From the NCBI GenBank assembly GCA_041660325.1, contig JBAZWR010000003.1, positions 1-61,870 on the forward strand: a DNA stretch of 61,870 nucleotides, written 5' to 3'. Both the position numbers and the translations under genes were made by a program. The notes under the pieces are model-generated. The model searched no databases, was not told the origin of the DNA, and worked only from the letters and a program-made list of their open reading frames with translations. The DNA comes from Thermodesulfovibrionales bacterium (GTDB lineage: Bacteria > Nitrospirota > Thermodesulfovibrionia > Thermodesulfovibrionales > SM23-35). Positions 27,958 to 49,502 of this stretch are shown here, piece by piece; the first letter of the stretch is position 1, and every line of letters starts with the position of its first letter.

Positions 27958-28698
27958 TTACCCGCGATTATTATTTTTCATAGCTGAAGCAAAACAGCTC
28001 AATGCAGGAGATACGGAAATATTCGAGCTTTTGTCTATGAGAACAAATGCTTCCGCATATTTAACGTCCTTCGGCAGGGTTGCGGTCCTGAAGCGGTTCA
28101 GGCCGGTTATCTTTTCAATATAGTCGTTATAATAAACCTCGGTATGATAGCATTCGATTGCATCTATCTTTCTTTTTATTTCATCGGTTATGTCAACCAG
28201 CACATTGGGATAGACAGCCATCAATACTTCATAAAAGACGCAAGATATTTCAAACTTGTCTTTTACCTCCCAGATCAGTCTGAAAGCCGTCCCGTGATCC
28301 GGATGTGCCTCATAGGGAGAGGGAGCATAAATTACCTCGGGATTGAAGTTATTGATAGTATGCTGAAGTCTTTCAGATAACTCCCTGAATAGAGGATTAA
28401 GTTCCCTGTCTCCGTATCCCCAGAATTCATAATCCTCAACGCCGAGAGCGCCCATAGCTTTCAGGGCTGATCTCCTTCGAGTATCCACATACTCCTTTCC
28501 GAATTTGCCAAGGAAATCTCCCTTATCGCCGTTTGTAAGGAATACTACCTTTACCCTGCTTTTTGCCTTGATATGCTTTATTATAGAGCCGCCGCATCCG
28601 AGGGATTCATCGTCAGGGTGAGGCGCTATAATAAGGGCGTCTTTTGAAGAGAAGTCGGTTAAGCAATAGGGATAAATATCCGGTTCATTCAGCGGCAT
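27958..28698 (-). CDS. PIG-L/LmbE-family deacetylase
   Basis: ALIIAPHPDDESLGCGGSIIKH is the family signature. I chose the ATG at 28698; the longer ORF-track start would overlap the divergent neighbouring gene. Confidence 0.8.
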   Translation of the reverse strand: MPLNEPDIYPYCLTDFSSKDALIIAPHPDDESLGCGGSIIKHIKAKSRVKVVFLTNGDKGDFLGKFGKEYVDTRRRSALKAMGALGVEDYEFWGYGDRELNPLFRELSERLQHTINNFNPEVIYAPSPYEAHPDHGTAFRLIWEVKDKFEISCVFYEVLMAVYPNVLVDITDEIKRKIDAIECYHTEVYYNDYIEKITGLNRFRTATLPKDVKYAEAFVLIDKSSNISVSPALSCFASAMKNNNRG

Positions 28699-28840
28699 GG
28701 TATAATTGTAGCACATCTTATGGAACCGTTTATTGTCAGAGCTTATCAGCAGGGCGACGAAGAGAAGATAACCGCGCTTTTCAACCTTGACAGAGACAAT
28801 TCGGGTCATTGTATATTATTCAAACGTGTTTTATAATTCT

Positions 28841-31384
28841 ATGCTTAATAAATTATCGGCAACCGGCATTAGGCAGTGGCTTTTCCATAACCCTGCTATT
28901 CACATACTGCTGATTCTAATCTTCACGCTTATAGCCTATTCCAATAGCTTCCATGTGCCTTTTCAGTTTGATGATCTCAGAGAGATCTCAGGGGATCATG
29001 CAATCAAAAATCTCAAACACTTTATCAATCTTTCAACTCACGGCACAAGATACATGACATATCTTTCGTTTGCGGTGAACTATGCGTTGCATGGTCTGGA
29101 TGTCGTCGGTTATCACATATTTAACCTTGTGATTCATCTCACCAATGCCCTTTTTGTCTACGGGCTTATTATTCTGAGTTTCAAAACCCCGATCTTGAAA
29201 GAGTCTTCTCTAAAAGATTCTTCAAAATTGATAGCGCTTTTTTCCGCCCTCTTTTTTGCCTGCCATCCTGTTCAAACACAGGCGGTCACTTACATCGTTC
29301 AGAGGTTGGCGTCACTGGCAACATTCTTTTATTTATTCAGCATCGTTTCCTATGCTAAGGCAAGGCTCTCTATGCAGGATGACCGACCGAAAAGGAAATC
29401 ACTACTGTGGTATGGAGTGTCACTTTTTTCTGCCGTGCTTGCCATGAAGACAAAGGAGATATCTTTCACCCTTCCGGTGGTCATCGCTGTCTATGAGTTC
29501 ATGTTCTTCAAGGCAGGAATTAAGAAAAGGACACTATACCTCCTGCCTATGTTGCTGACTATGCTCATCATTCCGCTGAGCCTTGTCAATATATCCAAAC
29601 CTTTGGGAGATGTAATAGGGGATGTCAGTAATGCAGCAAGGATGCAGACGGATGTTTCGCGGTGGGATTACCTTCTTACTCAGTTTAGGGTCATCACAAC
29701 TTACACCCGGCTCATTTTTCTGCCTGTAAACCAGAACCTTAATTATGATTATCCTATATCTCGTTCTCTCTTTAACCCACAGGTCTTTCTTTCCTTCCTG
29801 TTCCTTTTGTCGATCTTAATTCTCGGCGTCTATCTTTTCTTCCGTTACAGGAAGAGCGCGCCGCATGCAACACTTATCTCCTTTGGTATTTTCTGGTTTT
29901 TTATAACCTTGTCGGTAGAATCAAGTGTCATCCCCATTTCTGACGTGATCTTTGAGCACAGGCTATATCTTCCGTCAGTCGGTCTCTTCATTGCACTTGT
30001 TACATCGGTCATCTCGATGGAAAACAGAATAAAAGTTGCAATGCCGTCTGCAGGAAAGGTAATTATGCCAATATTAATTGTAATGGTGATTGTCCTTTCA
30101 GGCGTGACAATTCACAGAAACACAATCTGGAGGGATAAGATGACACTCTGGTCGGACGTAGTAAGGAAATCTCCCGATCTGGCCGGTCCTCGTAATAATC
30201 TTGGAAATGCTTTTGAAGAAAAAGGGTTAACAGACAAGGCGATTGAACAATATCAAATTGTATTGGCCCGGTATCCAAATGATCCGAGAGCCCATGAAAA
30301 TCTGGGGGTCGCCTTTTTCAAGCAGGGACTCATGGATAAAGCCATTGAAGAGTTACAGACTACTATTAAATTACGGCCCGATTATTATGATGCCTACTAT
30401 AATATGGGCCTTGTATTTTTCCGGAAGGGATGGATTGAGAAAGCAATCGGACAGTATGAAGCAGCCTTGAGAATAAAACCGAAATTCGCACCGGCCTATG
30501 TCAATCTGGGAATTGCTTATGGCTACATGGGCTCAATTGACAAGGCTGTCAACTATCTTGAGACAGCCGTAAACCTGGAGCCTCATCTTGCTGAAGCCCA
30601 TAATAACCTGGGAACAGCTTATGGGAAGTTAGGTTCTCCGGACAAGGCAATCGAGCATATCCGGATAGCCGTCAAATTACGGCCTGATTATGCGAATGCT
30701 CAGTACAATCTGGGGAAGGCGTACACTGCATCAGGCTCACCAGAGAAGGCGATCGAACATCTCCGGATAGCGGTTAATCTGCAGCCTGATTATGCAGATG
30801 CTCAGAATGACCTGGGGAAGGCATATATTGCATCAGGTTCCATAGACAAAGCAATTGAGCATCTTCAGGCGGCGGTAAAATTGCAGCCTGATCTCGCCGA
30901 AGCACATAAGTATTTAGGGGATGCCCTTTACATAAAAGGTTTGATTGATGAAGCTATTGAACAATTCCAGAGTGCCGTTAATTTAAAACCCGATTTCGTT
31001 GAAGCGCATAAGAACATGGGAGATGCCTTTTTCAGAAAAGGCTTATTAGACCCGGCGATCAAACAATACCGGATTGTCTTAAGATTAAACCCCAAATCTG
31101 TTGATGCTCGTTATAATTTAGGTGTAACATTGTACAATAAAGGGTTGGCAGAAAAAGCAATTGAGCATTTCCAGGCAGTCTTGGGATTACGGCCCGAATT
31201 TGCTGAAGCCCATAACAGTCTTGGAACAGCCTATTTAAAGTCGGGAGCCATAGAGAAAGCAACCGATCAATTTCAAATGGCTGTAAAACTGAACCCGGGT
31301 AATTCACTATTTATTAACAACTTGAGTAATGCGTATAATATTAAGAACCGGGCTGAAAAATCAAAGAGTGGTTTAACCAAATAG
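28841..31384 (+). CDS. TMTC-like GT-C membrane glycosyltransferase fused to about 11-12 TPR repeats
   Basis: The N-terminus is polytopic with the first-loop motif FHVPFQFDD. The C-terminal approximately 400 aa are consecutive 34-aa TPRs of the pattern A..N.G.A....G....AI..... The start could instead be the TTG at 28787. Confidence 0.7.
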   Translation: MLNKLSATGIRQWLFHNPAIHILLILIFTLIAYSNSFHVPFQFDDLREISGDHAIKNLKHFINLSTHGTRYMTYLSFAVNYALHGLDVVGYHIFNLVIHLTNALFVYGLIILSFKTPILKESSLKDSSKLIALFSALFFACHPVQTQAVTYIVQRLASLATFFYLFSIVSYAKARLSMQDDRPKRKSLLWYGVSLFSAVLAMKTKEISFTLPVVIAVYEFMFFKAGIKKRTLYLLPMLLTMLIIPLSLVNISKPLGDVIGDVSNAARMQTDVSRWDYLLTQFRVITTYTRLIFLPVNQNLNYDYPISRSLFNPQVFLSFLFLLSILILGVYLFFRYRKSAPHATLISFGIFWFFITLSVESSVIPISDVIFEHRLYLPSVGLFIALVTSVISMENRIKVAMPSAGKVIMPILIVMVIVLSGVTIHRNTIWRDKMTLWSDVVRKSPDLAGPRNNLGNAFEEKGLTDKAIEQYQIVLARYPNDPRAHENLGVAFFKQGLMDKAIEELQTTIKLRPDYYDAYYNMGLVFFRKGWIEKAIGQYEAALRIKPKFAPAYVNLGIAYGYMGSIDKAVNYLETAVNLEPHLAEAHNNLGTAYGKLGSPDKAIEHIRIAVKLRPDYANAQYNLGKAYTASGSPEKAIEHLRIAVNLQPDYADAQNDLGKAYIASGSIDKAIEHLQAAVKLQPDLAEAHKYLGDALYIKGLIDEAIEQFQSAVNLKPDFVEAHKNMGDAFFRKGLLDPAIKQYRIVLRLNPKSVDARYNLGVTLYNKGLAEKAIEHFQAVLGLRPEFAEAHNSLGTAYLKSGAIEKATDQFQMAVKLNPGNSLFINNLSNAYNIKNRAEKSKSGLTK
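30641..30946 (+). repeat. Three tandem 102-bp units (near-identical TPRs) inside the TMTC-like gene
   Basis: The units begin at 30641, 30743 and 30845. The encoded repeats are DKAIEHIRIAVKLRPDYANAQYNLGKAYTASGSP, EKAIEHLRIAVNLQPDYADAQNDLGKAYIASGSI and DKAIEHLQAAVKLQPDLAEAHKYLG.... Confidence 0.6.
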
Positions 31385-31421
31385 AGGTCCTCATCTTCTT
31401 ATCGGGTGGTGCACAGATGGG

Positions 31422-32372
31422 TCAACTCACATCATAGTCTCCCATCCTGTAGTTATAGTTCTCAAACAGAAACACCGAATCTATCTCATTATTTATTATC
31501 TTAAAAATATAGGGCATGCCCTTTTCTTGAGTGAACCCGTAACCAATTAAATTACGAAAGACTTCTTCGTTGGGATTGACCCATAAATTTATACTTTGAA
31601 GACCATGTTTTACGGCTACATTCTCAAACAATCTAAAAAGAACCTTTATATCAAATTGTTGCACGCAGAAAAAGTCCAGGATTGACAGCTCAGTCTCATT
31701 GACGGAAAACACGGCAAAGGCTTTAGGCGTTTTCTTATATCGCCCCCGCACAATTAATGGTTCGTATCTTTTGACCGGGTTGTGTTTATACCGCCAGAAG
31801 ATATAGTTGCTGTTCTTCACAATGGAAAGGCCCTGGCTGTCCTTTGTCTCTTCCCACAAGCAGTCAATCTCATTTCCCTTTATGAAATCCCATCCTTTCT
31901 CTATCTTTAATAATGGATTTCCTATATGCATGAACCGGGATACTCTTTTATGCAAGACTGATACATAATCGTGTTTCGTATAACCGAGTTGTTTTGTACC
32001 GAGGATGGCATGTCTTTCCGACGGAAAACCAAAGGCAAAATCCATATGATTAACTTCGTAAAAATTCTCACCGGCCCTTATCATTGCCCCTCTCTTAGAA
32101 AAAATTCTTGCCCTGTAGTTAGGACGTGTCATGACATCGCAGGGCTGAAAGACATCAAAGGTTTTACCTTTATAATAAAATTTTGTTCCCAGCCCGCCAT
32201 AATGAGCGACAATGCTATCACCATCCACAGCAATCACGGCAGTGCTCGCCCAGGGCGAGTCTTTGTACTTCCAGGCCCATTCCTCATGGGACAAATCTTT
32301 AACAAAACATAGAGCAAACAGGTTTCTTATAGCGTCTTCGTCCTCCGGTGTAAATGTTCTCACCACTATCAT
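31422..32372 (-). CDS. GNAT-like acyl/acetyltransferase (possibly FemAB-like two-lobed)
   Basis: 316 aa. The N-terminus IVVRTFTPEDEDAIRNLFALCF is typical of GNAT proteins. The call rests on general resemblance only. Confidence 0.55.
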   Translation of the reverse strand: MIVVRTFTPEDEDAIRNLFALCFVKDLSHEEWAWKYKDSPWASTAVIAVDGDSIVAHYGGLGTKFYYKGKTFDVFQPCDVMTRPNYRARIFSKRGAMIRAGENFYEVNHMDFAFGFPSERHAILGTKQLGYTKHDYVSVLHKRVSRFMHIGNPLLKIEKGWDFIKGNEIDCLWEETKDSQGLSIVKNSNYIFWRYKHNPVKRYEPLIVRGRYKKTPKAFAVFSVNETELSILDFFCVQQFDIKVLFRLFENVAVKHGLQSINLWVNPNEEVFRNLIGYGFTQEKGMPYIFKIINNEIDSVFLFENYNYRMGDYDVS

Positions 32373-32402
32373 TTGTTCAACCTCATTCCGGAAAAGTGTT
32401 AA

Positions 32403-34787
32403 TTATTGTATGTAAAAATACATTTTATTAAAGGCTATTCCCATAAGCTGCTCCGGCATTCCCTTATTTTGCATATATTGCAAGTATACTTCTTTATCAG
32501 TCAGGGATGAAAGAGGGCTTTTCTCCTTAAACCAAAAGCTCAGTTTGTTTAACCCGTTTCTCGGGCAAATCTCATCATTGAAAGGCACATTAATTGAATT
32601 CCAGCCCTTATGAAGCGGAACTGTCGCAACAAAAAGCCCCTTATCTCCATAAGAAAAAAGATTCGAATTCATCACCATAGTCATAGCTTCCTCGGGATTA
32701 AAATTATAGAGTCTTATACTCATACCTTTCATGGGTTTGGTTCCATCACGCAAAAAGGTTATCTCGGCATTCGGCATATCATATTCGACCGGTTTTTTGT
32801 CTTTGGAAAACCTGAATTTCTGCTTATCAAAAGGGATAGATCCGGTGTCACGAAGCACCCAGCAAACTGTCGAACCATATAAAGTCATAGGAGATGAGAA
32901 ACCGAACACCAGATGGCTGTTGGACTCAACCCCGCCGAAATCAATCTTGTCTGTATTCAAAATATCTTCGAGATTATCATTGTCACGATATAGTAATAAA
33001 CCGCCCTTAACAAGCGGCTGTATCCGCGTAAATCCCCTGACAGGGAGGACATATTCGTTTAATCTCGCGTAGGCATGATAGGAAATAGGAACACGGAAAT
33101 TAGCATGCCTCGCAAAAACATCAAAGTGTGAAAAATATATAGCATTGATCTTAAGTCCATACCTTTTCATAAGAAGGTATATCTCATCAGCGTATTCCGG
33201 GACAGGTACCGATGGTCTTCTCGAGAACCAGGCAGTGTTCCATGGATGGGTCGTCAAGATAATGCTGTCGGATGCCGTAGTATCTTCTATTTTCCTGAGG
33301 ACAGCAGGGTCCTCGGCAGTATATGCCTCAATGTCCCACATTTTGTAACGACTGTTCATCCATATCAGCGATGAAAAAACCAACAGCAAAAAACAGTATA
33401 AAGCGACTAATATCAAGCGCTTTTTCATAACACTTGTCAATACCAATACAACTGTAAAACCGATTATCCATATGCATACATTCATCGGGAGCTTGTCATA
33501 GCCGTTCAAAGACAGCGGGACAATGCAAGCGGTTAAGGAAAGACATACCAGCTCTTTCAGCCCGCCCCTTTGAGCAAGTGCCGGCCCGGGATTTACCTTA
33601 AAGGCCGGAATGAATTTTATACCTGTGTTATACCATTCATACACCGTCTTGGCTACAATAATTATTAGAGGAACAAACAGAAACTGAATATAACGTATGT
33701 TCAGACCTAAAGGCGCTATCAAGCAAATATGCAGGATAAAAGTAATGACAAAGAGCATCGCCAAAACTTTTATTTTCATATCAAGCGGCCGCTGTATTAA
33801 TCCAACTGCAAGGGGAATCCACCACCAGAAACTCCCCCTGAACCCAAAAAGTCCGGGTAGTGTATATTTCCGGATGTACATAAAAGACCTCGCAAAGAAG
33901 TCTGCAGGATAAGACAATAAATATGTAAGCGGTTTTTCTACGTCAATCCCATATTGCAATTTGTACCAGACGCTCATATATTTAGAAACAATGCTGTTCT
34001 CAACAAATTGAAAATACGAATTGCTGCTAAAAAAAGGAGTACCCAGAGTCACTGAATTATAGAAGATAAACGGCAAGATAGGAATTATAAAACCTAATGT
34101 ATATAATAATACTTCTTTCACTATGAGTTTCTTTTTGAAGTAAATAATGATCAGATAAACAAAGAACAATATGGCGCCTTCATTAAACCTGTTGAGGAAT
34201 GACAGACCTAATACAGCACCCGTGACAAAAGGCATGATTTTTTGACCCCTATCCCATGCAAGAAAAGCTATGAGCGATATGGTAAAAAAGAATATATCCG
34301 CACTATCGTTCTTGCTAAGCATTGTAGACAGAAGACCGTCATTTGTTATGAAGATGAAAGAAGCAATAAATGCAATAATACCGTTCTGAAACAAAATGTA
34401 TGTCAAGGCAAAAACAGCCGTCACCGACAAAAGATGAAAGATCGAAGGATATAAGAAATCCGCAACAAAGTGAGTTGCTCCAAAGACCTTAAACAAGGCC
34501 GCTATACTCAAAATCGGCAGCGGGAACCTGTATGTGTTTTTCCATGGCGGGCCTTCAGACAGCCATCCTTTTTTATCGTAAAGCGCCACTTCATAAAGAC
34601 TGAGCGAATTTGTCTTATAGCCGTCACCCTCTATAATATTTCTGGCCACCTGTGCTGAGGCAAGGTTATCAACACTGATAACCAGATAATGGTTGGAGAA
34701 ATAGGTCATCTTCCATGATAAAGATATGAACATAATCTCAATCAATACCGTCGCAAGAAACAGCAAAACTGTCTTTCCGAGTTTCAT
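32403..34787 (-). CDS. PMT/ArnT-like GT-C family membrane glycosyltransferase with a large C-terminal soluble domain
   Basis: 794 aa with more than 10 predicted transmembrane segments. The first loop, SVDNLASAQVARNIIEGDGYKT, resembles the PMT_2/ArnT family. Confidence 0.6.
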   Translation of the reverse strand: MKLGKTVLLFLATVLIEIMFISLSWKMTYFSNHYLVISVDNLASAQVARNIIEGDGYKTNSLSLYEVALYDKKGWLSEGPPWKNTYRFPLPILSIAALFKVFGATHFVADFLYPSIFHLLSVTAVFALTYILFQNGIIAFIASFIFITNDGLLSTMLSKNDSADIFFFTISLIAFLAWDRGQKIMPFVTGAVLGLSFLNRFNEGAILFFVYLIIIYFKKKLIVKEVLLYTLGFIIPILPFIFYNSVTLGTPFFSSNSYFQFVENSIVSKYMSVWYKLQYGIDVEKPLTYLLSYPADFFARSFMYIRKYTLPGLFGFRGSFWWWIPLAVGLIQRPLDMKIKVLAMLFVITFILHICLIAPLGLNIRYIQFLFVPLIIIVAKTVYEWYNTGIKFIPAFKVNPGPALAQRGGLKELVCLSLTACIVPLSLNGYDKLPMNVCIWIIGFTVVLVLTSVMKKRLILVALYCFLLLVFSSLIWMNSRYKMWDIEAYTAEDPAVLRKIEDTTASDSIILTTHPWNTAWFSRRPSVPVPEYADEIYLLMKRYGLKINAIYFSHFDVFARHANFRVPISYHAYARLNEYVLPVRGFTRIQPLVKGGLLLYRDNDNLEDILNTDKIDFGGVESNSHLVFGFSSPMTLYGSTVCWVLRDTGSIPFDKQKFRFSKDKKPVEYDMPNAEITFLRDGTKPMKGMSIRLYNFNPEEAMTMVMNSNLFSYGDKGLFVATVPLHKGWNSINVPFNDEICPRNGLNKLSFWFKEKSPLSSLTDKEVYLQYMQNKGMPEQLMGIAFNKMYFYIQ

Positions 34788-35647
34788 ATTTTTCGCGCGA
34801 AGACAACCATTTCTGAAAAGAACGCTAACGGATATTCCAAGAGTCTCCGGGGAGATAAAGCTTTGAGTATTTCTAATCCTTTCGTTTCGAGGCTGTTAGG
34901 CCGAAATTTTCTGTAATGGTTTATTATATAGTTTAAGGTTAAATACCTGATTCCTGTTTTACTTCCGAGATCATCAAACCCGATACTGATAAGTAATCGC
35001 TTCAATGTGCGGGGTGAGTAATAGTAAAGGTGTTCCACCTTATAATGAGGCCATCTATTTCTTAATACATGCGCTGTTAAGGAAGAGCAATCCGGTGTAA
35101 CAAGCAGTAATAGTCCGCTTTTTTTTAGTATCCTCTTGCATTCCTGAAGCCATTCCCCGGGCTCTGAAATATGTTCGAGAACATCTACAGCAGTAATCAA
35201 ATCAAAAGATTCTTTCGGGAAAGCCGCATCCTCCAACGTGCCTTTTCTCACTTTATAGCCAAGCTTAACTGCAACATCTGCAGCCGGCGATATTTCAATC
35301 CCATGGGAATCATAGCCTGCAGACCTTGCTGCTTCTATCATATAACCGAAGGCACATCCAATATCCAAATGGTATCGGTTACCGGAAGTCAATATGAGCC
35401 TATTTACCTCGTTTATGAGCCTCTTACACGTTTTAAGTTTCAGGTTAAAAGCATCCTGGAAATGATCCATTCCATAAATATCATAATATTCTTCGTTATA
35501 TATATTTTGGATTCCTTCTCTTGTGGGAGGAGGCAATATCGCTTGAAGCCCGCATGCACATTTGGCTATCTGTTTGCCTTCATCAATCCCGAATATTTTC
35601 TGATATCCGTCTTTCTTCCCGCAGACCGGACAAGGGTTTAAACTCAT
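34784..35647 (-). CDS. Class I SAM-dependent methyltransferase with an N-terminal zinc ribbon
   Basis: It has CPVCGKK...CACG, the SAM motif I HLDIGCAFG, and FDLITAVDVLEHI. A GGGGAGAG Shine-Dalgarno sequence lies upstream. Confidence 0.8.
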   Translation of the reverse strand: MSLNPCPVCGKKDGYQKIFGIDEGKQIAKCACGLQAILPPPTREGIQNIYNEEYYDIYGMDHFQDAFNLKLKTCKRLINEVNRLILTSGNRYHLDIGCAFGYMIEAARSAGYDSHGIEISPAADVAVKLGYKVRKGTLEDAAFPKESFDLITAVDVLEHISEPGEWLQECKRILKKSGLLLLVTPDCSSLTAHVLRNRWPHYKVEHLYYYSPRTLKRLLISIGFDDLGSKTGIRYLTLNYIINHYRKFRPNSLETKGLEILKALSPRRLLEYPLAFFSEMVVFARKI

Positions 35648-41342: not shown

Positions 41343-42434
41343 ATGTCAAAAAATTTGAAAATAACATATCTTTTTGAAAGTACCGACTTATGGGGCGGCA
41401 CCAAAGTAGGGCTTGAACAGGCCGAGGCCCTTTCAGATGCGGGGTACAATATTACCATTCTCTCGAAGGATGCCGGGCCGACATGGTATGACCTTAGACT
41501 ACCGGTCATAAAGGTATCCGGATTTGATGTCGATACAATCCCGGAATCCGACATAATAGTAGGCACCTACTGGCCGACAGTCAGGGCTGCCTATGAATCG
41601 CACAGGGGGATAGCGGTTCATCTGTGTCAGGGTTATGAGGGGGGTTGTAAGGAGTACAACTCTTTCAAGGCGGCTATAGACGAAGTATACTCATATAGAA
41701 TTCCCAAGCTTACCATATCGCTCAATCTGGATAAATTCCTTATTGACCGTTTTAATGCGGAAACCTATTATATAGGCCAGATGTTGAATAGAGATATTTT
41801 TTATCCTTCTACTAACTCAGTCTGCAAGAAACTGTTTAAGCCTTTTAAAATACCCGGTTTTGATACTTTCAAGGTACTTGTTGTCGGACCTTTTGAGGCA
41901 GATGTAAAAAACATAGCCGTCTCTCTTAAGGGAATTTCGCTCGCCAAGAAAAGTCTTGGCCATCCTTTAAAACTAATAAGGGTTTCACAATTCCCCCTTT
42001 CCGCCGGGGAAAAGGAGATAATGAAGCCCGATACTTACCACTTTCATGTTCCCCATCAGGATATGGGGAAAATATACAGAAAAGCGGACGTCCTCATTTC
42101 GATGTCGAATGAGGCCGAAGGATTCGGACTGCCGCCACTTGAGGCCATGGCCTCCGGGATACCCACAATACTGAGTAAAATTTCTTCACACCTCGTATAT
42201 GACGACCCTCAGGATTATGCAGTCTTTTCAGAATTCGACCCCGAGGCGCTTTCTGAAGTTATACTCTCGGTATTCAGGAACAGTGAACTCAGAGATAGAA
42301 TCTCGAAGAGAGGACTTCTGGTTGCAGATAAATATACCAGAGAGTCTGTGGTATCAAGACTTGACCGGGCCTTTAACGACATTGTCTCCCGGTCACAACT
42401 TAAAGGCGGCTACGATAAGGTCGGCCGGAGATGA
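41343..42434 (+). CDS. Glycosyltransferase family 4 (GT-B)
   Basis: EGFGLPPLEAMASGIPTILS is the GT4 E-x7-E region. Confidence 0.8.
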   Translation: MSKNLKITYLFESTDLWGGTKVGLEQAEALSDAGYNITILSKDAGPTWYDLRLPVIKVSGFDVDTIPESDIIVGTYWPTVRAAYESHRGIAVHLCQGYEGGCKEYNSFKAAIDEVYSYRIPKLTISLNLDKFLIDRFNAETYYIGQMLNRDIFYPSTNSVCKKLFKPFKIPGFDTFKVLVVGPFEADVKNIAVSLKGISLAKKSLGHPLKLIRVSQFPLSAGEKEIMKPDTYHFHVPHQDMGKIYRKADVLISMSNEAEGFGLPPLEAMASGIPTILSKISSHLVYDDPQDYAVFSEFDPEALSEVILSVFRNSELRDRISKRGLLVADKYTRESVVSRLDRAFNDIVSRSQLKGGYDKVGRR

Positions 42435-44080
42435 AAAAAATTCATCTTCAACCGCTTATCGGAATTATTTTACTTCTCGTTATAGGCTCTGCTTTTGTAT
42501 TTTTATACTCACCGTTGATCGGCAACTGGTTCATGTCCGACGATACCTACCTGATGTGGGCATCCGCCTCACTGAAACTTCACGAAATGTTCTTCAGCCC
42601 TGAAAGACACAGGGTATTGTCAAGTAATTTTAATCCCATGTATGGAGTGTCATTCAAAATTGATTGGTTGCTGTTTAATATGAATCCCGTGGGATATGCC
42701 GTCCACAATATACTTTCCTTGTCGGCTGTTTCAATAGTTTTGTATTTCTTTATCAGGCTCTATACGGCAAGACTTTCAGCGCTTGTCGGGGTCTCACTCT
42801 TTCTGCTCCATCCTGTTACTCTCCACATGACCGGTTTATTTTTCAGAAAACACTATATCGAAGGATTATTTTGGGCATTGCTTGATCTGTATTTTTTTGT
42901 CAGGGCCGATCGCATGGGGAGAGCTTCGGTGTTATCGGCGTTTTTTTACCTCATTGCATCGCTGTACAGAGAAGTGTATGTGGTACTTCCTGCGGTAGCA
43001 TTTTTAATTTCAAAGCAAAGCATGATAGTAAAACGTCTTCGAAATACTTTGCCCCTCTGGGCAGGGCTTCTCATTTATACTGTCTGGAGGTTGTGGATAC
43101 GAGAGGGCATGGGCGGTTATCCGAGTAACCAGTCCCTATTCTCATTCGAAACCCTGCAATTTATTCCAAAAGTCATCGCTTCTCTTTCACTACAGTGGTC
43201 ATCCGCTTACCCGGTTTTGGTATATATACTGATGACCGTACTTATCATATCTTCATTAAAATACCCCCGGTTATTATTCTGTTTTTTAATTTTGTTGATA
43301 CCCATTCTTCCCGTGTCGAATATCATAACCGGTGGTCTCTCTGCTTCAAAATACTTCTTTCATCTTACAGTGTTTCTCATCATTTGCATATCTCTGCTCA
43401 TCGATAAACCCCCTATAAAACAGACCGTGCTTTTCAGATTTATTCTCCTTTCCTTATGCCTCTTTTTCTCAGCGGGCTTTATTGCGCGGGACATTCACAT
43501 GGTCGATGACATGCTGGACGAAAGCCGAAAAGCAAAGAGTACGGCGATGGAGTTTATGTATTCAGGAGCCCCGTATATCAGAGCCCAGCAGCCTTCCTGG
43601 TTCTATGAGGGTCTCAGGAATATCAACAGGGATTTTTTGGGGAAGCATATTCAAACACAGCTGGTCCCGCCTGACGATTTCCTTCCATATGCCGACCCCC
43701 TGAAACTCCGGGAGATAACGAACTCCGGGATAAATATACCGTACCAGGAAATACTCGAAATACGGAAGAAATTCAGAAAAGGTCCTATCAATATAAAACT
43801 GCATGTCGATAATTACAAGCTGTCGTGGGATTTCGGACCTCATAGGGATAAAACGTATACCTTGCTCCGAAGTCTCGTGAGCGGACTCTATTATAATAAA
43901 TCCGACCTGATATCATCCGGGACATATATGTTGGGGAAAGGCGATACGCATGATACTCCGGAGGCAGTCTTTATTAGGGTTCTTTACCATACCGGCACCG
44001 GAGAGATAGTCATTTCTCCCGAGTTCAAACTCATGATCCCAAGCAATAAAACAATTGACTATGTTCAAGCAGCAGAATGA
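42431..44080 (+). CDS. Polytopic membrane protein, GT-C-like with a first-loop DD motif
   Basis: 549 aa, with its start in an ATGA overlap with the upstream GT4 gene. After the first transmembrane segment comes GNWFMSDDTYL, parallel to the FQFDD motif in the TMTC-like protein. It has about 11 transmembrane segments and a C-terminal soluble domain of about 180 aa. Confidence 0.5.
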   Translation: MKKIHLQPLIGIILLLVIGSAFVFLYSPLIGNWFMSDDTYLMWASASLKLHEMFFSPERHRVLSSNFNPMYGVSFKIDWLLFNMNPVGYAVHNILSLSAVSIVLYFFIRLYTARLSALVGVSLFLLHPVTLHMTGLFFRKHYIEGLFWALLDLYFFVRADRMGRASVLSAFFYLIASLYREVYVVLPAVAFLISKQSMIVKRLRNTLPLWAGLLIYTVWRLWIREGMGGYPSNQSLFSFETLQFIPKVIASLSLQWSSAYPVLVYILMTVLIISSLKYPRLLFCFLILLIPILPVSNIITGGLSASKYFFHLTVFLIICISLLIDKPPIKQTVLFRFILLSLCLFFSAGFIARDIHMVDDMLDESRKAKSTAMEFMYSGAPYIRAQQPSWFYEGLRNINRDFLGKHIQTQLVPPDDFLPYADPLKLREITNSGINIPYQEILEIRKKFRKGPINIKLHVDNYKLSWDFGPHRDKTYTLLRSLVSGLYYNKSDLISSGTYMLGKGDTHDTPEAVFIRVLYHTGTGEIVISPEFKLMIPSNKTIDYVQAAE

Positions 44081-44461
44081 CCCTGTAAAAAGGTCATGAC
44101 CTCTTAAAGCCGGCCGGGATCCCGTCATATTTTTTAACAGTCTGCCGGATCATGCCTCTGCAACAATCACGATCTCTGATGCATTCAGGTTATCCTCACT
44201 CGATGATGATTATGCAGTTATTGTCGCAGAGAAGAAGTGAGACTATGTTATCAAATTCAGTGTCACATTTTTTTCTTAAGACCTGCTATATAAATTCACT
44301 TGACATTACCTTATACCTCTGATAACCTTTTTTAAAAAGGAGGTGGGAGATAAAATATATGTTATTTAGGGTAAGGCATTCCTGTGCAAAATATCACATT
44401 CAGACGCACTGAATACCTGTAAAAACATGCAACTATGCTTGTGAGAAAGAAGAGGGATTGT

Positions 44462-45484
44462 ATGAATACGAAAATAAGACTTATTATAATTTTGCTCTTT
44501 TGTCTATTTATAGCATTACCCTATGGGAAGGCAGAGGCAGTTCTTGGTATACCCGACAACGTACAGTCTGCCACTTTAATTGTTCCTTTAATGGAGAGGG
44601 GGATTTCCAGCCCCTATAACACCCTGACTGTTGTAGATAGCCTATGCTTAGGTCCTCGTACCATCCACTGGCAGGTATGGGATATGGACGGCAATGCGAC
44701 GCCTCTTAATGGCAACGTCACCCTTCAAGGGTCATGGGTGTCCGATTTCGGGACCATCCTGGGAGGAGCCTCAGGGGCGACACTCACCCAGTTGACTGAT
44801 GGTTCGTTTTATCACGGATTCATGACAATAGACATGGTGACTGCAGCAACAAGTTTGCTTCCCACTAACCCTGCTTATCCGTTCTCCGGGACCAATTGTC
44901 TGACAGGGTGGACCTACTACGTGAGGCTCAGTGAAGGCTCATCCAATGGACTCCCCATGGTCCATATAGAGGGGGGAGTAGGTACAGATGTCCATACAAA
45001 TGCAAGGGGATTTTACCAAGCGGATGATGACAGGGAGGAAATAGATAATCATTCACGCTACTATGCATACCTTACAACAAAGGGGCTGTCTATTGTTGAT
45101 GACCCCAACGATAAAACCGACTATACCATAAGCAGGGTGTATTGCCAGGGAAATGGTGAAACCAGAATCATTGTCTGGGCATGGGCGCCCGCCCAATTCG
45201 GGACTACTTCCAAACCGTCTGATCATGTCGCAGGCGGGCCATTTCAATATTGGCAGTTCGGTGAATCAGGCACTCAGGTTGCGGATAGTACGGTAGCGCT
45301 CAATCACATCGTGAATGTCATCAATGTCCCGGGCGACACAAACGGACAGGTCTGGATAAACAATATACCTGACAACTTTAACGTTTATGTCTTTTCAATC
45401 AACTCTGCTAATAATATTGCAAATCCAGCCTTGACATGGGATGCCTTGTTCGAATCCACTATACTGCCTCAGTGGTTGCCATAA
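44462..45484 (+). CDS. Secreted protein of unknown family (paralog A)
   Basis: The Sec signal is MNTKIRLIIILLFCLFIALPYGKAEA|VLGIPDNV.... It shares its N-terminal mature motif and scattered blocks with the protein encoded at 52717-53844. I recognised no known domain. Confidence 0.6.
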   Translation: MNTKIRLIIILLFCLFIALPYGKAEAVLGIPDNVQSATLIVPLMERGISSPYNTLTVVDSLCLGPRTIHWQVWDMDGNATPLNGNVTLQGSWVSDFGTILGGASGATLTQLTDGSFYHGFMTIDMVTAATSLLPTNPAYPFSGTNCLTGWTYYVRLSEGSSNGLPMVHIEGGVGTDVHTNARGFYQADDDREEIDNHSRYYAYLTTKGLSIVDDPNDKTDYTISRVYCQGNGETRIIVWAWAPAQFGTTSKPSDHVAGGPFQYWQFGESGTQVADSTVALNHIVNVINVPGDTNGQVWINNIPDNFNVYVFSINSANNIANPALTWDALFESTILPQWLP

Positions 45485-45500
45485 TAACGGAATGTAAAAT

Positions 45501-45532: not shown

Positions 45533-45556
45533 TAATCAATCCTTGAGATCCGGCTC

Positions 45557-46747
45557 TTATCCCTCGGCAACAATCACTATCTCGTTCGCCTTCAATTCCT
45601 CTTCCTGTAATTCCGGCAGAAGCTCCTTGAGACGGGCAATAAACTCGCAACCTTTCCGGGGCAGATTGAAACTCTGGAAGTGTAACTCTTTTATCCTGTA
45701 CCCGGCCTCTTCGAAAAGCTCGGCATAGGTGTTCCTTGTGAAGAATCGTATGTGCGTCCCTGAAAGTATGCTGAAAGGGATGTAATCCCATCTCCCCTTC
45801 AGCATTTCGCGGATGATCGCCCAGTTAGTCACGTTTGGAGAACTCGCGATGAAGAGACCTCCGTCCTTCAGATGCCTTCTCAGGAGTTTCACGACCTTCC
45901 AGGGATTATTCAAATGTTCTAATACATCACCGCAGACAATACAATCATACAGACCGAGTCTTCCCTCATCAAGTATAGTTTCGACATCCCCATGTTTAAC
46001 ATAGTCTAACCTGGCTCCGGCAATATCAACCAGTTCACGATCCGATTCAACTCCGGTAACAAAACATTCCTGTCTTTTTTTAAGCATTTCGCCGAAGAGA
46101 CCTCCGGCAGAACCGATATCAAGAACTTCTCGGGCATCGAGAGGTACATATTCCAAAAGGTCATCTCTGCCGCTTTCGTAACAATTACCATAACGGTGGG
46201 CATAAACCCCTTTAGCTACACCAAACCTTAATCCACCATTTTTCACAATCTTTGGCAAATCAATTAAAGAACCGTCTTCCGGTAAAACATTCAATAGTTC
46301 ACTTCTTAAGGCAAGACAGAAATTATCTATTTCATCAGCCTCTATTATATTATCTTTATATTCATCATAGATATCCTTCACTGCCCATTTTAATACTGAT
46401 ATTGTTTGATAGATATAAGGGGGTGCATGCCTCTGATATAGTATCTTACTTTCATTGGTCACAGGTACGATGACTGAGAATTTCTTTTGGTTCAAAGCTA
46501 TCCTCGATAGGACATTGATGCCCTCGTATGTGATAAATAAAATGCCGTAGATAAAGACAAACACATCGTAACCTTTATAATTAAAAAGGTCTCTGACCAT
46601 TAAAGAGCTGTCTCCATCAATCTCAAATAAATCTAAGGTCTTATCATTGCTCTCCAATAGCAGATGTCTGCTGACCCTCTGTGCGGTCTCCCCTTCCATA
46701 CCTTTGAAGCTATTCTCTTTGATAATAAAAACGGCTATTTTACTCAT
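45557..46747 (-). CDS. Two-domain protein: unknown (GT-A-like?) N-terminal domain plus a class I SAM methyltransferase
   Basis: The C-terminal half has VLDIGSAGGLFG and YDCIVCGDVLEHL. The N-terminal approximately 190 aa contain FSVIVPVTNES. I chose the ATG at 46747, which overlaps the yfhO stop by 8 nt. Confidence 0.7.
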   Translation of the reverse strand: MSKIAVFIIKENSFKGMEGETAQRVSRHLLLESNDKTLDLFEIDGDSSLMVRDLFNYKGYDVFVFIYGILFITYEGINVLSRIALNQKKFSVIVPVTNESKILYQRHAPPYIYQTISVLKWAVKDIYDEYKDNIIEADEIDNFCLALRSELLNVLPEDGSLIDLPKIVKNGGLRFGVAKGVYAHRYGNCYESGRDDLLEYVPLDAREVLDIGSAGGLFGEMLKKRQECFVTGVESDRELVDIAGARLDYVKHGDVETILDEGRLGLYDCIVCGDVLEHLNNPWKVVKLLRRHLKDGGLFIASSPNVTNWAIIREMLKGRWDYIPFSILSGTHIRFFTRNTYAELFEEAGYRIKELHFQSFNLPRKGCEFIARLKELLPELQEEELKANEIVIVAEG

Positions 46748-49502
46748 TATTGAAGTGTTTTCTTCTCCCTTTAAAAAACAGATACGACATCCATACAATG
46801 AAGGTTGTTACTGAAATAATAATACCCGAATAAAAGCTTATGGGTCTATAATAAAAAAGGACTTCACTCCTTCCGCTTTCGACCATTACACCCCTTAAAA
46901 GCCCAAATGCCTTTATCATCCTTTCCTCCTTCCCGTTAACCCTCACCTTCCAGCCGGGGTAATAGAGGTCACTTAAAACAAGGAGCCCGCCCTTTGATTC
47001 TACTTCAATAGCTACCTCATCAGAAGCATATTTTTTAATCATAACCTTCTCATATGAAAATCCCCCCTCGTCCCCCTTTATTAAAGGGGGGATAAAATTT
47101 ACGAGTCCGACTTTCCTGAAATTAATGCCTCCCTGCAACTCATTTATTATACTATTAAGATCATCGTTAATCCTTATCTGATGTAATACAAAGGCCCTCT
47201 CCATAACATTTCTGTTTTCGTATATATGGATACCTTCGTATGCCCCTTTGTACCCCAGAAAATCAAGTTCCCTTTTGTGAAGTCTCAATAGCTTTGCATG
47301 AAGGGACATCTCTTTTTCATATCCCGGGGAAAGACCGAAATTTCCTAACACGATACTTCCGTCACCGCTACCAGCCCCTTCTATGATAAAAGTAACTTCC
47401 TTGCCCATATAATTCGAGACATCCAGCCATTGGTCATTCCAAACACCATCATGTACAATCAATTCCGCAGCTCTGTTTTCTACCATTATTTTTACTTTAG
47501 CTGTTGTGCCCTTTGGGACATCTTTCATTGAAAAACCTGCAAAGATAAAAGGCTCCGATACCCTGAGTTTTGTTTCGAATACGAACTTCATCGGAAAAAA
47601 GAAGGAGAATCTCTCATCAACACCCGGATTAAAAACACCATAGTGTGCCCCTCCTTTAATGGAATGCCTGACCATGGCGTCAAATAAACGCACCCATCTC
47701 ACGGAAGCAATATGAGATTTTATGGCATCCTCAAGCCTTCGGGGGTCCAACAGATCATGGCTCATAATGTATTTAACACCCAAAAGGTCAATAAACGGCG
47801 ACGTTGCGGTAAAGAGTGGGTTCGGATTATTGGTCTGCGGCACACTAAAACCGAGAAGGTTTTCAGAGAAAGTATAATAATCACCGGGCAGCAAAACACT
47901 GACAGCCCTTATGTCATGCAAACCGATGGCATTACCGGTCAGAGGAGGGGCGCAGTTTCCGCTCCCGGTAATCCTGTAATGCCCCGGCCCTTTCATGACG
48001 GCTGTATAAGGCGGCTCCTGATAGGGATTGTACCTGTCCGGATGGTCTTTCGGCATATACAGGTAGAGTTCCACGATGAGCATGAGGAAAACAAGTCCTC
48101 CAAATACATGCTTCTTTTTTGAGAGACGGAAGGTAACAGCGACAAGCGCCGTTCCTGAAAGTGTGAGGAACAGGACAGCAGTCATATGGTTTTTGACCCC
48201 GGAAGGGCTCCGGCCATAGAGGAAGAAGAAATATAAGGCGACGAGAGAAGAGACAAAAAATACGGAAAGATAAAACTTCTTCCTGTTCCCCCTGCCTGAT
48301 AAAAGGTCATCAAAAGCAGAGGCGGACATTACCGCCAATGAGAAATAGAACATTGCATTGTATTTCAGGAATTCAATGCTTCCGATAACAGGCAGTCTCG
48401 AAATAACATGCGGCGGTAAAACGCCGTATATCATAGAAAACATAAATAATGAGAAGATGATAAAAGGAAAGGTTTTCTTTAACGTGTTGAGGTTAAGCAC
48501 AGCATAGAAAGATAAAATCAATATTACTATCGCCGTGTGGGGCAAAATAATATGGGGCTCCCAATGGAGCCATGACCCATAGAAATAATTTTCCCATCCG
48601 AGGAATAGCGGCTGAAACAGTGATACAGATGTAATCAAAGGGATCGTATGACCGGCAGCCCCTGTCCTTATGGCTTTTGCAAGCGGAGAGGCATGCAAGT
48701 AGAGTTCAATGAAGGGTATAAGCACTACTGCTGCCATTAGTGCACCGGAGACCGTACCGATAATTACCTTCCATCCCTCTCTATGAAGACCCTTGATGGA
48801 ATCTTTCATATAACCCTTCCAGAGCGCATAGGGGAAGAGGAGAGAAAGACACATGATCACATCGGGTGTCTTTCCGGCAATCAGTGCAAATGAGAGAAGA
48901 AGCGACATGAAGAATGCGTTTTTGAGATTTTTTCCATTGCTCCATCTCTCGTAAAAATAGAAAACAGCCGGCAGGTACATTACTGTGCTTAACGGATGCA
49001 GATTTACCCACCAGACGGAATATCCCGATAACATGAAAAAAGAAGCGCCGAAGAGGGATGAAGCATGAGAGAGGTGCAGTTCCCTCAAAAAGAGAAAAGC
49101 GAAGGAACCCATCACAAGAAGCCTCAGGAGAAAAAACATGTCCTGCGAAAAGGGGTGAGGAAAAAGGTTCAGAAAAATCTTCAGAGGGTTAAAAACTTCT
49201 GTATTTAAATTGCCGATAAGCGGGATTCCCAGACCTTCAAGAGGGTTCCACACAGGCAATGTATTCTCATTCAGTATCCCTCTTATTATGTAGGGATTAG
49301 GCTCGTTCACATACGCATTTCCGCCGATATCGAAGGAAAACGGCATCTCGGGCCTGTATCCTGAAAAGCCGTAAGGGCCGTTGGGGGTTGCCCCAGGGAG
49401 CAGGGAAGACGTAGAAAGGGTCTTCCCCGAAAAAAGCACGTCATTGAAAAAAAAGATGAGCAAGATAAGTAAAAGAAAAAGCCCTAATTTATTCTTGCCC
49501 AT
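46740..49502 (-). CDS. YfhO-family GT-C-like membrane protein
   Basis: 920 aa with many transmembrane segments. The C-terminal block LLVLSDLYYPGWKVRVNGKE is typical of YfhO. Confidence 0.8.
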   Translation of the reverse strand: MGKNKLGLFLLLILLIFFFNDVLFSGKTLSTSSLLPGATPNGPYGFSGYRPEMPFSFDIGGNAYVNEPNPYIIRGILNENTLPVWNPLEGLGIPLIGNLNTEVFNPLKIFLNLFPHPFSQDMFFLLRLLVMGSFAFLFLRELHLSHASSLFGASFFMLSGYSVWWVNLHPLSTVMYLPAVFYFYERWSNGKNLKNAFFMSLLLSFALIAGKTPDVIMCLSLLFPYALWKGYMKDSIKGLHREGWKVIIGTVSGALMAAVVLIPFIELYLHASPLAKAIRTGAAGHTIPLITSVSLFQPLFLGWENYFYGSWLHWEPHIILPHTAIVILILSFYAVLNLNTLKKTFPFIIFSLFMFSMIYGVLPPHVISRLPVIGSIEFLKYNAMFYFSLAVMSASAFDDLLSGRGNRKKFYLSVFFVSSLVALYFFFLYGRSPSGVKNHMTAVLFLTLSGTALVAVTFRLSKKKHVFGGLVFLMLIVELYLYMPKDHPDRYNPYQEPPYTAVMKGPGHYRITGSGNCAPPLTGNAIGLHDIRAVSVLLPGDYYTFSENLLGFSVPQTNNPNPLFTATSPFIDLLGVKYIMSHDLLDPRRLEDAIKSHIASVRWVRLFDAMVRHSIKGGAHYGVFNPGVDERFSFFFPMKFVFETKLRVSEPFIFAGFSMKDVPKGTTAKVKIMVENRAAELIVHDGVWNDQWLDVSNYMGKEVTFIIEGAGSGDGSIVLGNFGLSPGYEKEMSLHAKLLRLHKRELDFLGYKGAYEGIHIYENRNVMERAFVLHQIRINDDLNSIINELQGGINFRKVGLVNFIPPLIKGDEGGFSYEKVMIKKYASDEVAIEVESKGGLLVLSDLYYPGWKVRVNGKEERMIKAFGLLRGVMVESGRSEVLFYYRPISFYSGIIISVTTFIVWMSYLFFKGRRKHFNNE
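47072..47090. repeat. Perfect 9-bp-arm palindrome inserted in frame in yfhO
   Basis: CCCCCTTTA t TAAAGGGGG. On the coding (minus) strand it encodes PPLIKGDEGGF. Confidence 0.5.

Follow-up and report, generated by a model that had tools for sequence, protein, structure and literature searches.

A glycan locus with GT-C glycosyltransferases and a conserved set of exported proteins, nested among type II secretion genes in groundwater and sediment Nitrospirota

The present analysis concerns a glycan-related gene island in a 61,870-nucleotide stretch of DNA (hereafter the window, whose positions are used throughout) from a Thermodesulfovibrionales bacterium of the phylum Nitrospirota (assembly GCA_041660325.1, contig JBAZWR010000003.1). 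The window is contig C3 of a metagenome-assembled genome of 2.85 Mb in 212 contigs, coded G000. An earlier inspection of the letters and reading frames, the sequence-only reading, had proposed that the island holds an unusual number of membrane glycosyltransferases of the GT-C type and serves the periplasmic glycosylation of proteins or of a polymer. The island is found here to belong to a gene neighbourhood, conserved in several families, in which glycan enzymes, GT-C proteins and a recurrent set of exported proteins lie together and, in many cases, between genes of a type II secretion system (T2SS), an arrangement suggestive of a so far undescribed system for a surface glycoconjugate or glycoprotein.

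Gene content of the locus

Families were assigned by Pfam on the open reading frames (ORFs) of the window, with NCBIfam equivalogs and PDB sequence searches in addition; the Pfam gathering cut-offs are 26.1 bits for PMT_2 (PF13231), 28.5 bits for YfhO (PF09586) and 30.4 bits for Wzt_C. All the genes listed by the sequence-only reading are present where it had placed them, as evident from the ORF list, and Pfam confirms the ones that it assigns. The glycan enzymes are listed below (GT, glycosyltransferase; SAM, S-adenosylmethionine; TPR, tetratricopeptide repeat; CBM, carbohydrate-binding module; AF2, AlphaFold2), with core and accessory describing their retention in the loci compared further on.

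27958-28809, minus strand: PIG-L family de-N-acetylase (PF02585, 103 bits; nearest NCBIfam entry BshB1, under its cut-off)
28841-31384 (ORF opens at 28787), plus strand: TPR GT-C-like protein, a membrane domain of ~440 aa followed by ~11 TPRs (TPR families of Pfam; accessory)
31422-32372, minus strand: GNAT acyltransferase (Pfam Acetyltransf_9; core, kept in nearly all loci)
32403-34787, minus strand: 794-aa GT-C, ArnT/PMT_2-like, with a C-terminal CBM-like beta-sandwich (AF2 and Foldseek; accessory)
34784-35647, minus strand: class I SAM methyltransferase of 287 aa, MT287 (Pfam; by synteny travels with GT9 and the 794-aa GT-C)
35583-36827, minus strand: GT9, heptosyltransferase-like (PF01075; TIGR02195 at 97.6 bits against a cut-off of 134.6; accessory)
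36824-37963, minus strand: soluble GT2, GT2-379 (Pfam; core)
37951-39132, minus strand: Wzt ABC ATPase with C-terminal Wzt_C glycan-binding domain (ABC_tran; Wzt_C at 37 bits against 30.4; core)
39132-39989, minus strand: Wzm ABC-2 permease (ABC2_membrane, 66.6 bits; core)
40200-41318, plus strand: radical SAM/SPASM enzyme (Pfam; no NCBIfam cut-off reached; core)
41343-42434, plus strand: GT4, GT4-363, whose stop overlaps the start of the next gene by 4 bp (Pfam and synteny; core)
42431-44080, plus strand: 549-aa GT-C with C-terminal Ig-like beta-sandwich (AF2 and Foldseek; core, alternating or co-occurring with YfhO-920)
45557-46798, minus strand: methyltransferase of 413 aa, MT413, after YfhO-920 (Pfam; near-core, syntenic in G348, G350, G214, G018, G029 and L001)
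46740-49502, minus strand: YfhO-family GT-C of 920 aa, YfhO-920 (PF09586; core)
56442-58581, minus strand: GT4 of 379 aa (56442-57581) and GT2 of 350 aa (GT2-350, 57529-58581), upstream of gspD (Pfam)
59256-61571, minus strand: second YfhO-family GT-C, of 771 aa (PF09586)

The Wzm permease and the Wzt protein with its C-terminal glycan-binding domain, both recognised by Pfam, are the constituents of an ABC-dependent O-polysaccharide system. The nearest PDB entry of GT2-379 is chondroitin synthase (2z87, E 2e-10); GT2-379 and GT2-350 both have zero predicted transmembrane (TM) helices, and the match to dolichol-phosphate-mannose synthase is merely at E 5e-5. The radical SAM/SPASM enzyme is nearest to the sugar-modifying BlsE (7vob, 9e-11) and to PqqE (1e-8), so that its substrate could be either a sugar or a peptide.

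The sequence-only reading had held that the locus is no simple O-antigen locus, and this agrees with what is missing from it. In a Pfam search of the genome, the window shows no WaaL/Wzy_C protein, no priming phosphoglycosyltransferase and no GtrA, and none of its enzymes reaches an NCBIfam cut-off for a lipopolysaccharide (LPS) or teichoic-acid function. The only WaaL/Wzy_C protein of the genome is on contig C156, Bac_transf is on C102 and C109, Glycos_transf_4 on C7 and the sole GtrA (PF04138) on C19. The three-component set of the Gtr type is likewise incomplete at the locus, where neither a GtrA flippase nor a membrane-anchored GT2 synthase accompanies a GT-C. Neither OPX/PCP proteins nor any other outer-membrane export route for a polymer was found in the window, where GspD is the only secretin.

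The secretion genes, the regulators and the exported proteins are as follows (EBP, enhancer-binding protein).

15355-22963, plus strand: T2SS genes gspE, gspF, three pseudopilin-like genes, gspK, gspL (PilM/PilN-like) and gspM (Pfam T2SSE, T2SSF, N_methyl three times, T2SSK, PilM_2/PilN, T2SSM_b)
22969-27086, minus strand: receiver protein, PAS histidine kinase and sigma-54 EBP, between gspM and gspC (Pfam)
27303-27932, plus strand: GspC-like protein of 209 aa with one TM helix, flanking the island (no Pfam match of its own)
44435-45484, plus strand: exported 349-aa protein, sec349, a weak paralogue of sec375 (signal peptide and common mature N-terminus)
49555-50673, minus strand: exported CARDB-domain protein, 22% Ser+Thr, with two Cys-rich repeats (Pfam CARDB; composition)
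50939-51334, minus strand: small lipoprotein of 131 aa (lipobox in the sequence; conserved position)
51371-52588, minus strand: FG-GAP beta-propeller lipoprotein (Pfam FG-GAP_3, 117 bits; conserved)
52717-53844, minus strand: exported Cys-rich 375-aa protein, sec375, of an unannotated family (no Pfam match)
54369-56285, minus strand: GspD secretin (Pfam Secretin, Secretin_N and GspD N0; same position in G348 and G009)

The N0-domain secretin, the GspE ATPase, GspF, the pseudopilins and GspK/L/M, as identified by Pfam, establish the secretion genes as those of a T2SS. The identity of the GspC-like protein is suggested by a weak PF11356 (T2SSC) match, seen on the L007 homologue only. L001 and G015 likewise have the sigma-54 EBP at this place; scanning the window for the consensus of sigma-54 promoters gave 26 matches against 24 expected, which is not above chance.

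Regarding the exported proteins, the two Cys-rich repeats of the CARDB protein are ~45 aa each (…VSG.GPWSWTC.G..GG..ASCSA) and have no Pfam match. In most loci the gene of the 131-aa lipoprotein is flanked by those of the CARDB and FG-GAP proteins, with the secretin gene close by, and the lipoprotein could conceivably be a pilotin-like partner of GspD.

Away from the island, the uppP gene that the sequence-only reading had listed along with it does exist, as a BacA/UppP match at 10461-11228 (Pfam); it adjoins ftsK, 17 kb from the island, and looks like an unrelated housekeeping gene. Two phosphoribosyltransferase-domain proteins, one of them fused to an alpha/beta hydrolase, are encoded at 4038-6149, also far from the island. 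Donors that depend on phosphoribosyl pyrophosphate supply some GT-C systems; the two proteins are probably unrelated to polyprenyl-phosphoribose chemistry.

Assignment of the polytopic proteins to the GT-C class

The sequence-only reading had counted five GT-C proteins, of which four (both YfhO proteins and the 549-aa and 794-aa proteins) are well supported, and the fifth, the TPR protein, is a candidate on its motifs and one weak profile alignment. The 771-aa YfhO protein matches PF09586 with 66.3 bits over N-terminal and C-terminal stretches and thus passes the cut-off of 28.5. YfhO-920 attains 36.6 bits over its last 80 residues only; its N-terminus aligns to the 771-aa protein (tblastn 1e-8), the homology of the two including N- and C-terminal parts, and owing to this N-terminal alignment both are assigned to the YfhO family.

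The 549-aa, 794-aa and TPR proteins gave no Pfam, NCBIfam or PDB sequence match to GT-C families, either singly or as profiles, and none of the three reaches the PF13231 cut-off or matches that family even at E <= 10. Structure prediction places the first two among the GT-C proteins. The AF2 model of the 549-aa protein (pLDDT 89.3, pTM 0.88; TM1 at residues 6-31) retrieves from the PDB by Foldseek a top 15 that are all GT-C enzymes (STT3, ArnT, ALG12, AglB, EmbB, PimE and PglB; E 1e-4 to 3e-2, TM-scores 0.32-0.45), and F34, D37 and D38, just past TM1, are invariant in 33 homologues. The best match of the 794-aa model (pLDDT 70) is ArnT (5f15, E 2.9e-7, TMt 0.56), followed by STT3, EmbA/B/C, DPY19 and PglB, while its C-terminal domain resembles CBM6/CBM36. 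In the 794-aa family the acidic residue past TM1, D40, is invariant. A predicted GT-C fold is thereby well supported for the 549-aa protein and also for the 794-aa protein.

Both families approach PMT_2 through their relatives, as 2 of the ~44 homologues of the 549-aa protein and 6 of the 12 word-index homologues of the 794-aa protein carry PF13231. The 794-aa profile, searched against 1.84 billion representatives, finds 22 clusters at E <= 1e-30 and then grades into proteins of 500-570 aa; six of ten of these remote matches are bona fide PMT_2 proteins by PF13231. Since only the homologues match, the 549- and 794-type proteins are taken as relatives of the PF13231 clan and not as members by the curated threshold.

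The membrane domain of the TPR protein may be GT-C-like and is the weakest case of the five. In 12 homologues the motifs FQFDD (F43-D44-D45), KEISFT (KE..FT) and EHRLY (EHR.Y) are invariant or nearly so, and the domain aligns to the 549-aa family by hhalign with E 1.3e-4 over 198 columns at a probability of 53%. Its profile has no PMT_2, TMTC_DUF1736 or PDB match, and the family is large (>6900 homologues). A close paralogy of the 794-aa family with the 549-aa or TPR family was considered and rejected at hhalign probabilities <3%, and as this comparison shows no relationship to either, the three families are judged not to be close paralogues. The TPR region (28787-31384) also scores 219.9 bits on the NCBIfam equivalog for the magnetosome protein MamA (cut-off 200); this looks like a repeat-driven false positive, composed of four separate TPR stretches in a neighbourhood lacking magnetosome context, and it could mislead automatic annotation.

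Conservation of the locus and its linkage to type II secretion

For synteny, loci were fetched via homologues of the 794-aa, 549-aa and YfhO-920 proteins, and the proteins of the window were then mapped on them; the matches in the examined parts of these loci are to the window's own gene set only. The mapping reveals a supercluster in ~12 loci of at least four families, built of three layers, namely an enzyme core, a GT-C component and exported proteins. The core consists of Wzm, Wzt, GT2-379, GNAT, GT4-363 and the radical SAM/SPASM enzyme, usually with MT413. Every locus has YfhO-920, the 549-aa GT-C or both: the two occur together in G000, G004, G348 and L007, the 549-aa GT-C without YfhO-920 in G350/L008, G009, G015 and L009, and YfhO-920 without the 549-aa GT-C in G214, G018 and G029. 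The exported layer comprises the CARDB protein, whose position beside YfhO-920 is conserved in other loci, a lipoprotein of ~130 aa, the FG-GAP lipoprotein and the sec375/sec349 family, with sec349 orthologues in G350, G214 and G029. Core, GT-C and exported set are seen together in G348, G004, G350/L008, L007, G214, G018 and G029, and, with greater divergence, in G009, G015 and L009.

Other genes are narrower in distribution. The trio of GT9, MT287 and the 794-aa GT-C is confined to G000, L001, L003 and L004, the TPR GT-C to G000, L001, G348 and G004, and a search of the genome contigs for related loci with the 794-aa family found one locus only. Judged by synteny, the 794-aa and TPR proteins are accessory, with YfhO-920 and the 549-aa GT-C as the conserved core. 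PIG-L is part of the supercluster in G348, G350, G009 and G015 and adjoins gspD in G348 and G009.

A few further observations were made on individual loci. A B12-binding radical SAM enzyme, absent from the window, adjoins the SPASM gene in L007 (14290-15789), L009 (10058-11512) and the G009 locus (27543-28955). The GT4-363 homologue of L023 (G029:C24, 7655-9577) has 640 aa, ~280 aa more than that of the window, and may be a fusion. L004 (CAZAYE010000101.1), titled 'uncultured Enterobacteriaceae bacterium', carries the Wzt-GT9-794-aa GT-C block at 47-63% identity to the window locus, and this bin label is probably wrong.

Co-occurrence was counted over a phylum-wide sample of 401 genomes. Full-length orthologues of the 549-aa GT-C are present in 7 of them, sec375 in 8 and YfhO-920 in 6, and all six genomes with YfhO-920 also have sec375. 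In the genomes with the best-scoring 549-aa orthologues besides that of G000 (G348, G350 and G004), sec375 is on the same contig. The linkage of the GT-C genes to the secreted proteins, which the sequence-only reading had noted in one genome, is thus conserved in others, contrary to what would have refuted that reading. The genomes represent several families, in which the other members lack every one of these genes, and five congeners are without the 794-aa protein; as sister members lack the genes, the unit behaves like a mobile or frequently lost island.

The T2SS genes enclose the island, with gspE-F-pseudopilins-K-L-M, the sigma-54 module and the gspC-like gene on one side and gspD on the other. 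The gspD gene is upstream of, and co-directional with, the genes of sec375, FG-GAP, the small lipoprotein, CARDB, YfhO-920 and MT413, with gaps of 36-524 bp or overlaps. A gspC-like gene, gspD or both flank the island in G000, L001, L003, L007, L009, G009, G015 and G348; the GspC-like homologues do so in L001, L003, L007, L009, G009 and G015. The order in G009 is gspD-PIG-L ... 549-aa GT-C ... Wzt-Wzm-gspC-M-L-K..F-E, the arrangement in G015 is comparable, and G348 has sec375-PIG-L-gspD. This nesting between gspC and gspD, which the sequence-only reading had missed, is the most distinctive feature of the locus.

The number of GT-C genes, which had been thought unusual, is not exceptional, as such genes are common in the lineage. 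The window has five GT-C candidates in 34 kb and the rest of the 2.85-Mb genome at least 10 (nine with PF13231 and one TPR paralogue on C19), a local enrichment of ~28-fold; relatives carry 1-9 PF13231 genes, and some members of the order 26-31. The PF13231 matches of G000 among those listed (8 of 9) are all outside the window, and further small GT-C clusters are found on C13, C129 and C19. It is the conserved arrangement, and not the GT-C count, that is exceptional. Of the clusters elsewhere, that on C19 (22113-29923) has a second TPR GT-C paralogue (25% identity) beside a further PMT_2 gene and the one GtrA-family flippase of the genome, a three-component set of a more classical kind than the window's, and C13 (6844-10349) has an Arn-like operon of a 244-aa GT2, an aminotransferase and a 528-aa PMT_2 GT-C. 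C13 was also considered as an independent second linkage of sec375 with a GT-C and was dismissed, as its sec375 paralogue lies by an efflux pump of the RND type and the GT-C of the Arn-like operon is 13 kb away.

Comparison with known glycosylation systems

Periplasmic GT-C enzymes operate in several multi-component systems, among them streptococcal GacI/GacL, Klebsiella GmlABC and Gtr. In the GT136 system of C. youngae, the O antigen is ABC-dependent and is decorated by a GT-C that carries a CBM at its C-terminus (PMC11127046). The window locus resembles systems of this type in its predicted cytoplasmic polymer, its Wzm/Wzt export and its outer-face GT-Cs (~11-13 TM helices, Asp after TM1, C-terminal CBM-like domain). 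It differs in having no recognisable pair of polyprenyl-phosphate-sugar synthase and flippase, and in having a GT-C as a constant core component, several different GT-Cs, exported proteins and the tie to the T2SS. The locus is thus a variant of the known multi-component GT-C glycosylation systems, and its T2SS association and its two GT-C families are distinctive.

The Pgf protein-glycosylation machinery of S. mutans includes the YfhO-like PgfM1, to which the window shows a similarity of just 18.7 bits where the cut-off is 1400. YfhO, CsbB and GtcA glycosylate teichoic acids (PMC5836110, PMC8035078). Two YfhO-type GT-Cs above the Pfam cut-off and nearby GT2 enzymes are common to that system and the window; however, the host is a diderm Nitrospirota bacterium without teichoic acids, and the locus has neither GtcA nor GtrA.

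Eukaryotic TMTC1-4 are protein O-mannosyltransferases that combine a GT-C domain with TPRs. Their motifs are DD in loop 1, KE(T/Q)xxT in the loop EL3 and ERxxY in EL5, ahead of a C-terminal TPR array (PMC7801869), and TfpW of Pseudomonas, also a GT-C with TPRs, arabinosylates type IV pilin (bioRxiv 10.1101/2020.04.19.049825). The TPR protein of the window resembles both in having a polytopic GT-C-like domain with a loop-1 DD followed by a long non-cytoplasmic TPR array. By an alignment made by eye and not to TMTC sequences, its motifs correspond to M1 (DD), M4 (KEISFT) and M7 (EHRLY) of TMTC; M2, M3 and M5 (SHKSYRP, RxD, DW) are not recognisable in it, and the TMTC_DUF1736 loop between TM7 and TM8 (PF08409) is unmatched, the C19 paralogue giving merely 13 bits at E 0.27. 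On PF08409, TMTC membership of the TPR protein is not supported. It differs from TfpW in that its gene is not adjacent to a pilin gene, and it has no significant sequence match to a solved GT-C.

The S-layer O-glycosylation loci of Geobacillus and Paenibacillus export a methyl-capped glycan by Wzm/Wzt and transfer it to protein by WsaB. An ABC exporter, methyltransferases, GT2 and GT4 enzymes and co-encoded surface proteins, without Wzx or a Wzy polymerase, are shared by these loci and that of the window. The S-layer transferase belongs to the Wzy_C/WaaL family, which is absent from the window locus, where the GT-Cs hold the constant position instead. The ArnT/PMT_2 enzymes provide the best structural match of the 794-aa protein, and its homologues and remote profile matches carry PF13231; the window proteins, on the other hand, are under the PF13231 threshold, an extra periplasmic region of 300 aa with a CBM-like domain is present, and C13 of the same genome has a separate Arn-like operon.

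Proposed function and alternative explanations

The reading favoured here, with a probability of roughly 0.6, is that the locus makes up the glycan-building half of an envelope supercluster of ~35 kb that is conserved in groundwater and sediment Nitrospirota, in which a lipid-linked glycan is exported, finished by GT-Cs and tied to exoproteins. What this analysis observed is which genes are present, a GT-C fold for both the 549-aa and the 794-aa protein, the synteny and the co-occurrence; from these we infer donors, acceptors and an order of steps as follows. Soluble GT4 and GT2 enzymes, joined by GT9 in G000, would build the glycan, attached to a lipid carrier, on the cytoplasmic side of the membrane, where the methyltransferases, GNAT, the PIG-L deacetylase and the radical SAM/SPASM enzyme would tailor it. 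Wzm/Wzt, through the ATPase with Wzt_C, would move it to the periplasmic face. There the GT-Cs would act with lipid-phosphate-linked sugar donors, YfhO-920 and/or the 549-aa protein performing the core step and the 794-aa and TPR proteins the accessory ones, and the product would be used together with the CARDB, small lipoprotein, FG-GAP and 375/349-aa proteins.

As for the acceptor, there is nearly an even chance that the exoproteins receive the glycan and the locus is a secretion-linked surface glycoprotein system. The slight leaning towards exoprotein acceptors arises because a GT-C is constant, the window has no WaaL-type ligase and conservation is as strong for the exoprotein set as for the enzymes. 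A somewhat smaller chance is given to a polymer, free or anchored to a lipid, which the CARDB and FG-GAP proteins would bind or organise. Thus, of the sequence-only proposal of protein O-glycosylation or polymer decoration, the linkage to secreted proteins is upheld by its conservation, and a protein acceptor in preference to a polymer stays a proposal. A more specific form, a T2SS with a built-in glycosylation line, in which CARDB, FG-GAP and sec375/349 would be O-glycosylated in the periplasm by the YfhO-type and PMT_2-related 549-aa GT-Cs, with a donor glycan or lipid-linked sugar supplied via Wzm/Wzt, before or during passage through the secretin, is less likely than not.

Several points weigh against the favoured reading. 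The co-occurrence counts in the 401 genomes ignore shared ancestry, and the C13 paralogue of sec375 (23615-24556) adjoins an RND pump (1059 aa) with no GT-C beside it. The Foldseek TM-scores are modest (0.3-0.56) and the pLDDT of the 794-aa model is only 70; the TPR protein is read as a GT-C from its motifs and the one hhalign match of 53% probability. GT2-379 resembles a soluble polymerising GT2 such as chondroitin synthase more closely, no clear polyprenyl-phosphate-sugar synthase was identified, no GtrA-type flippase is encoded in the locus, and no glycan enzyme of the window attains an NCBIfam equivalog cut-off, those of LPS and teichoic-acid functions included. The metagenome runs that hold the locus, from groundwater and sediment samples, are DNA metagenomes only; one of them contains 98% of the locus words. 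Wzt_C with nearby methyltransferases is also a hallmark of ordinary capped O-polysaccharides, which the distant WaaL of C156 could ligate. Finally, the 33-kb contig of G004 has no T2SS gene, and for this reason the T2SS link is regarded as frequent and not obligatory.

The strongest competitor, which is credited with a chance somewhat under even, assigns the locus to a polysaccharide only: a methyl-capped polymer exported by the ABC transporter would receive side chains from the GT-Cs, as with GT136, GtrC, GacL and YfhO, and the exoproteins would be unglycosylated, either binding the polymer as matrix proteins or anchors or being mere T2SS cargo. Wzt_C, the two methyltransferases beside the glycosyltransferases, the polymerising relatives of GT2-379 and the variability of the GT9-MT287-794-aa sub-module, which recalls serotype decoration, all suit this view, as do the CBM6/36-like domain of the 794-aa GT-C and the beta-sandwich of the 549-aa GT-C, for CBMs on GT-Cs bind glycan acceptors (PMC11127046). 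Yet the presence of a GT-C of one or the other core type in every locus is more in keeping with a core step than with optional decoration, the window has no ligase or export route for a polymer, and the equal conservation of the exoproteins would be left over. That the locus is an ordinary one for LPS O antigen or core, with the T2SS and exoprotein genes as chance neighbours and ligation to lipid A-core by the C156 WaaL homologue, is improbable. Wzm/Wzt and a GT9 with 97.6 bits to TIGR02195 are typical LPS genes, a WaaL/Wzy_C protein does exist elsewhere in the genome, and priming transferases are likewise encoded outside the locus, as for E. coli O8/O9; but GT9 is accessory (four loci only) and under the NCBIfam cut-off, the genes are patchy even within the genus (the 794-aa protein and YfhO-920 as described above), and conservation of the neighbourhood in ~12 loci of at least four families makes a chance adjacency unlikely.

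Two further explanations are given very little weight. In one, the TPR GT-C, perhaps with others, glycosylates the pseudopilins of the T2SS in the manner of TfpW, whose architecture it resembles (11 TM helices, DDx motif, TPR domain in the periplasm; bioRxiv 10.1101/2020.04.19.049825), and three pseudopilin genes do lie 9-10 kb upstream. The tfpW gene directly follows pilA, whereas the TPR GT-C gene is apart from the pseudopilin genes; moreover, it occurs in just four of the ~12 loci, in G004 it is present on a contig without T2SS genes, and a family of its size is not specific to the cluster. In the other, a glycolipid like those of the glycosylphosphatidylinositol (GPI) or phosphatidylinositol mannoside type is made, with GT4 adding GlcNAc to a lipid, PIG-L deacetylating it and the GT-Cs extending it after a flip, and could anchor the exported proteins. 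GT4, PIG-L and several GT-Cs do mirror PIG-A, PIG-L and PIG-M,V,B; in NCBIfam, GT4-363 weakly resembles BshA, MshA and GlcNAc-phosphatidylglycerol synthase, the closest entry for PIG-L is BshB1, and the locus has no polyprenyl-priming transferase. All these similarities stay far under the cut-offs of the families, neither a transamidase nor a phosphoethanolamine transferase was seen, the exported proteins have no hydrophobic C-terminal signals, and Wzm/Wzt with Wzt_C is typical of polyprenyl-PP-linked glycans, leaving such a glycolipid hardly to be expected.

Significance

Glycosylation by GT-Cs in the periplasm has been well studied in mycobacteria, in Firmicutes and for a few O antigens of enterobacteria; to our knowledge, almost nothing is known of it in Nitrospirota or other uncultured diderms. 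The present analysis adds two sparsely populated GT-C families (549-aa and 794-aa) that escape sequence searches of Pfam, NCBIfam and the PDB, and a repeatable genomic signature in which a glycan exported by an ABC transporter and GT-Cs accompany a fixed set of exoproteins and a T2SS. It thereby offers a candidate system for the question of whether, in Gram-negative-type cells, GT-Cs can be the enzymes that transfer O-glycans to secreted proteins. If a GT-C line is indeed built into the T2SS, a GT-C, and not an enzyme of the WaaL/PglL type, would be the protein O-glycan transferase of a diderm bacterium; if a polymer is the acceptor, the locus would still define a new secretion-linked surface-matrix module of abundant groundwater and sediment bacteria.

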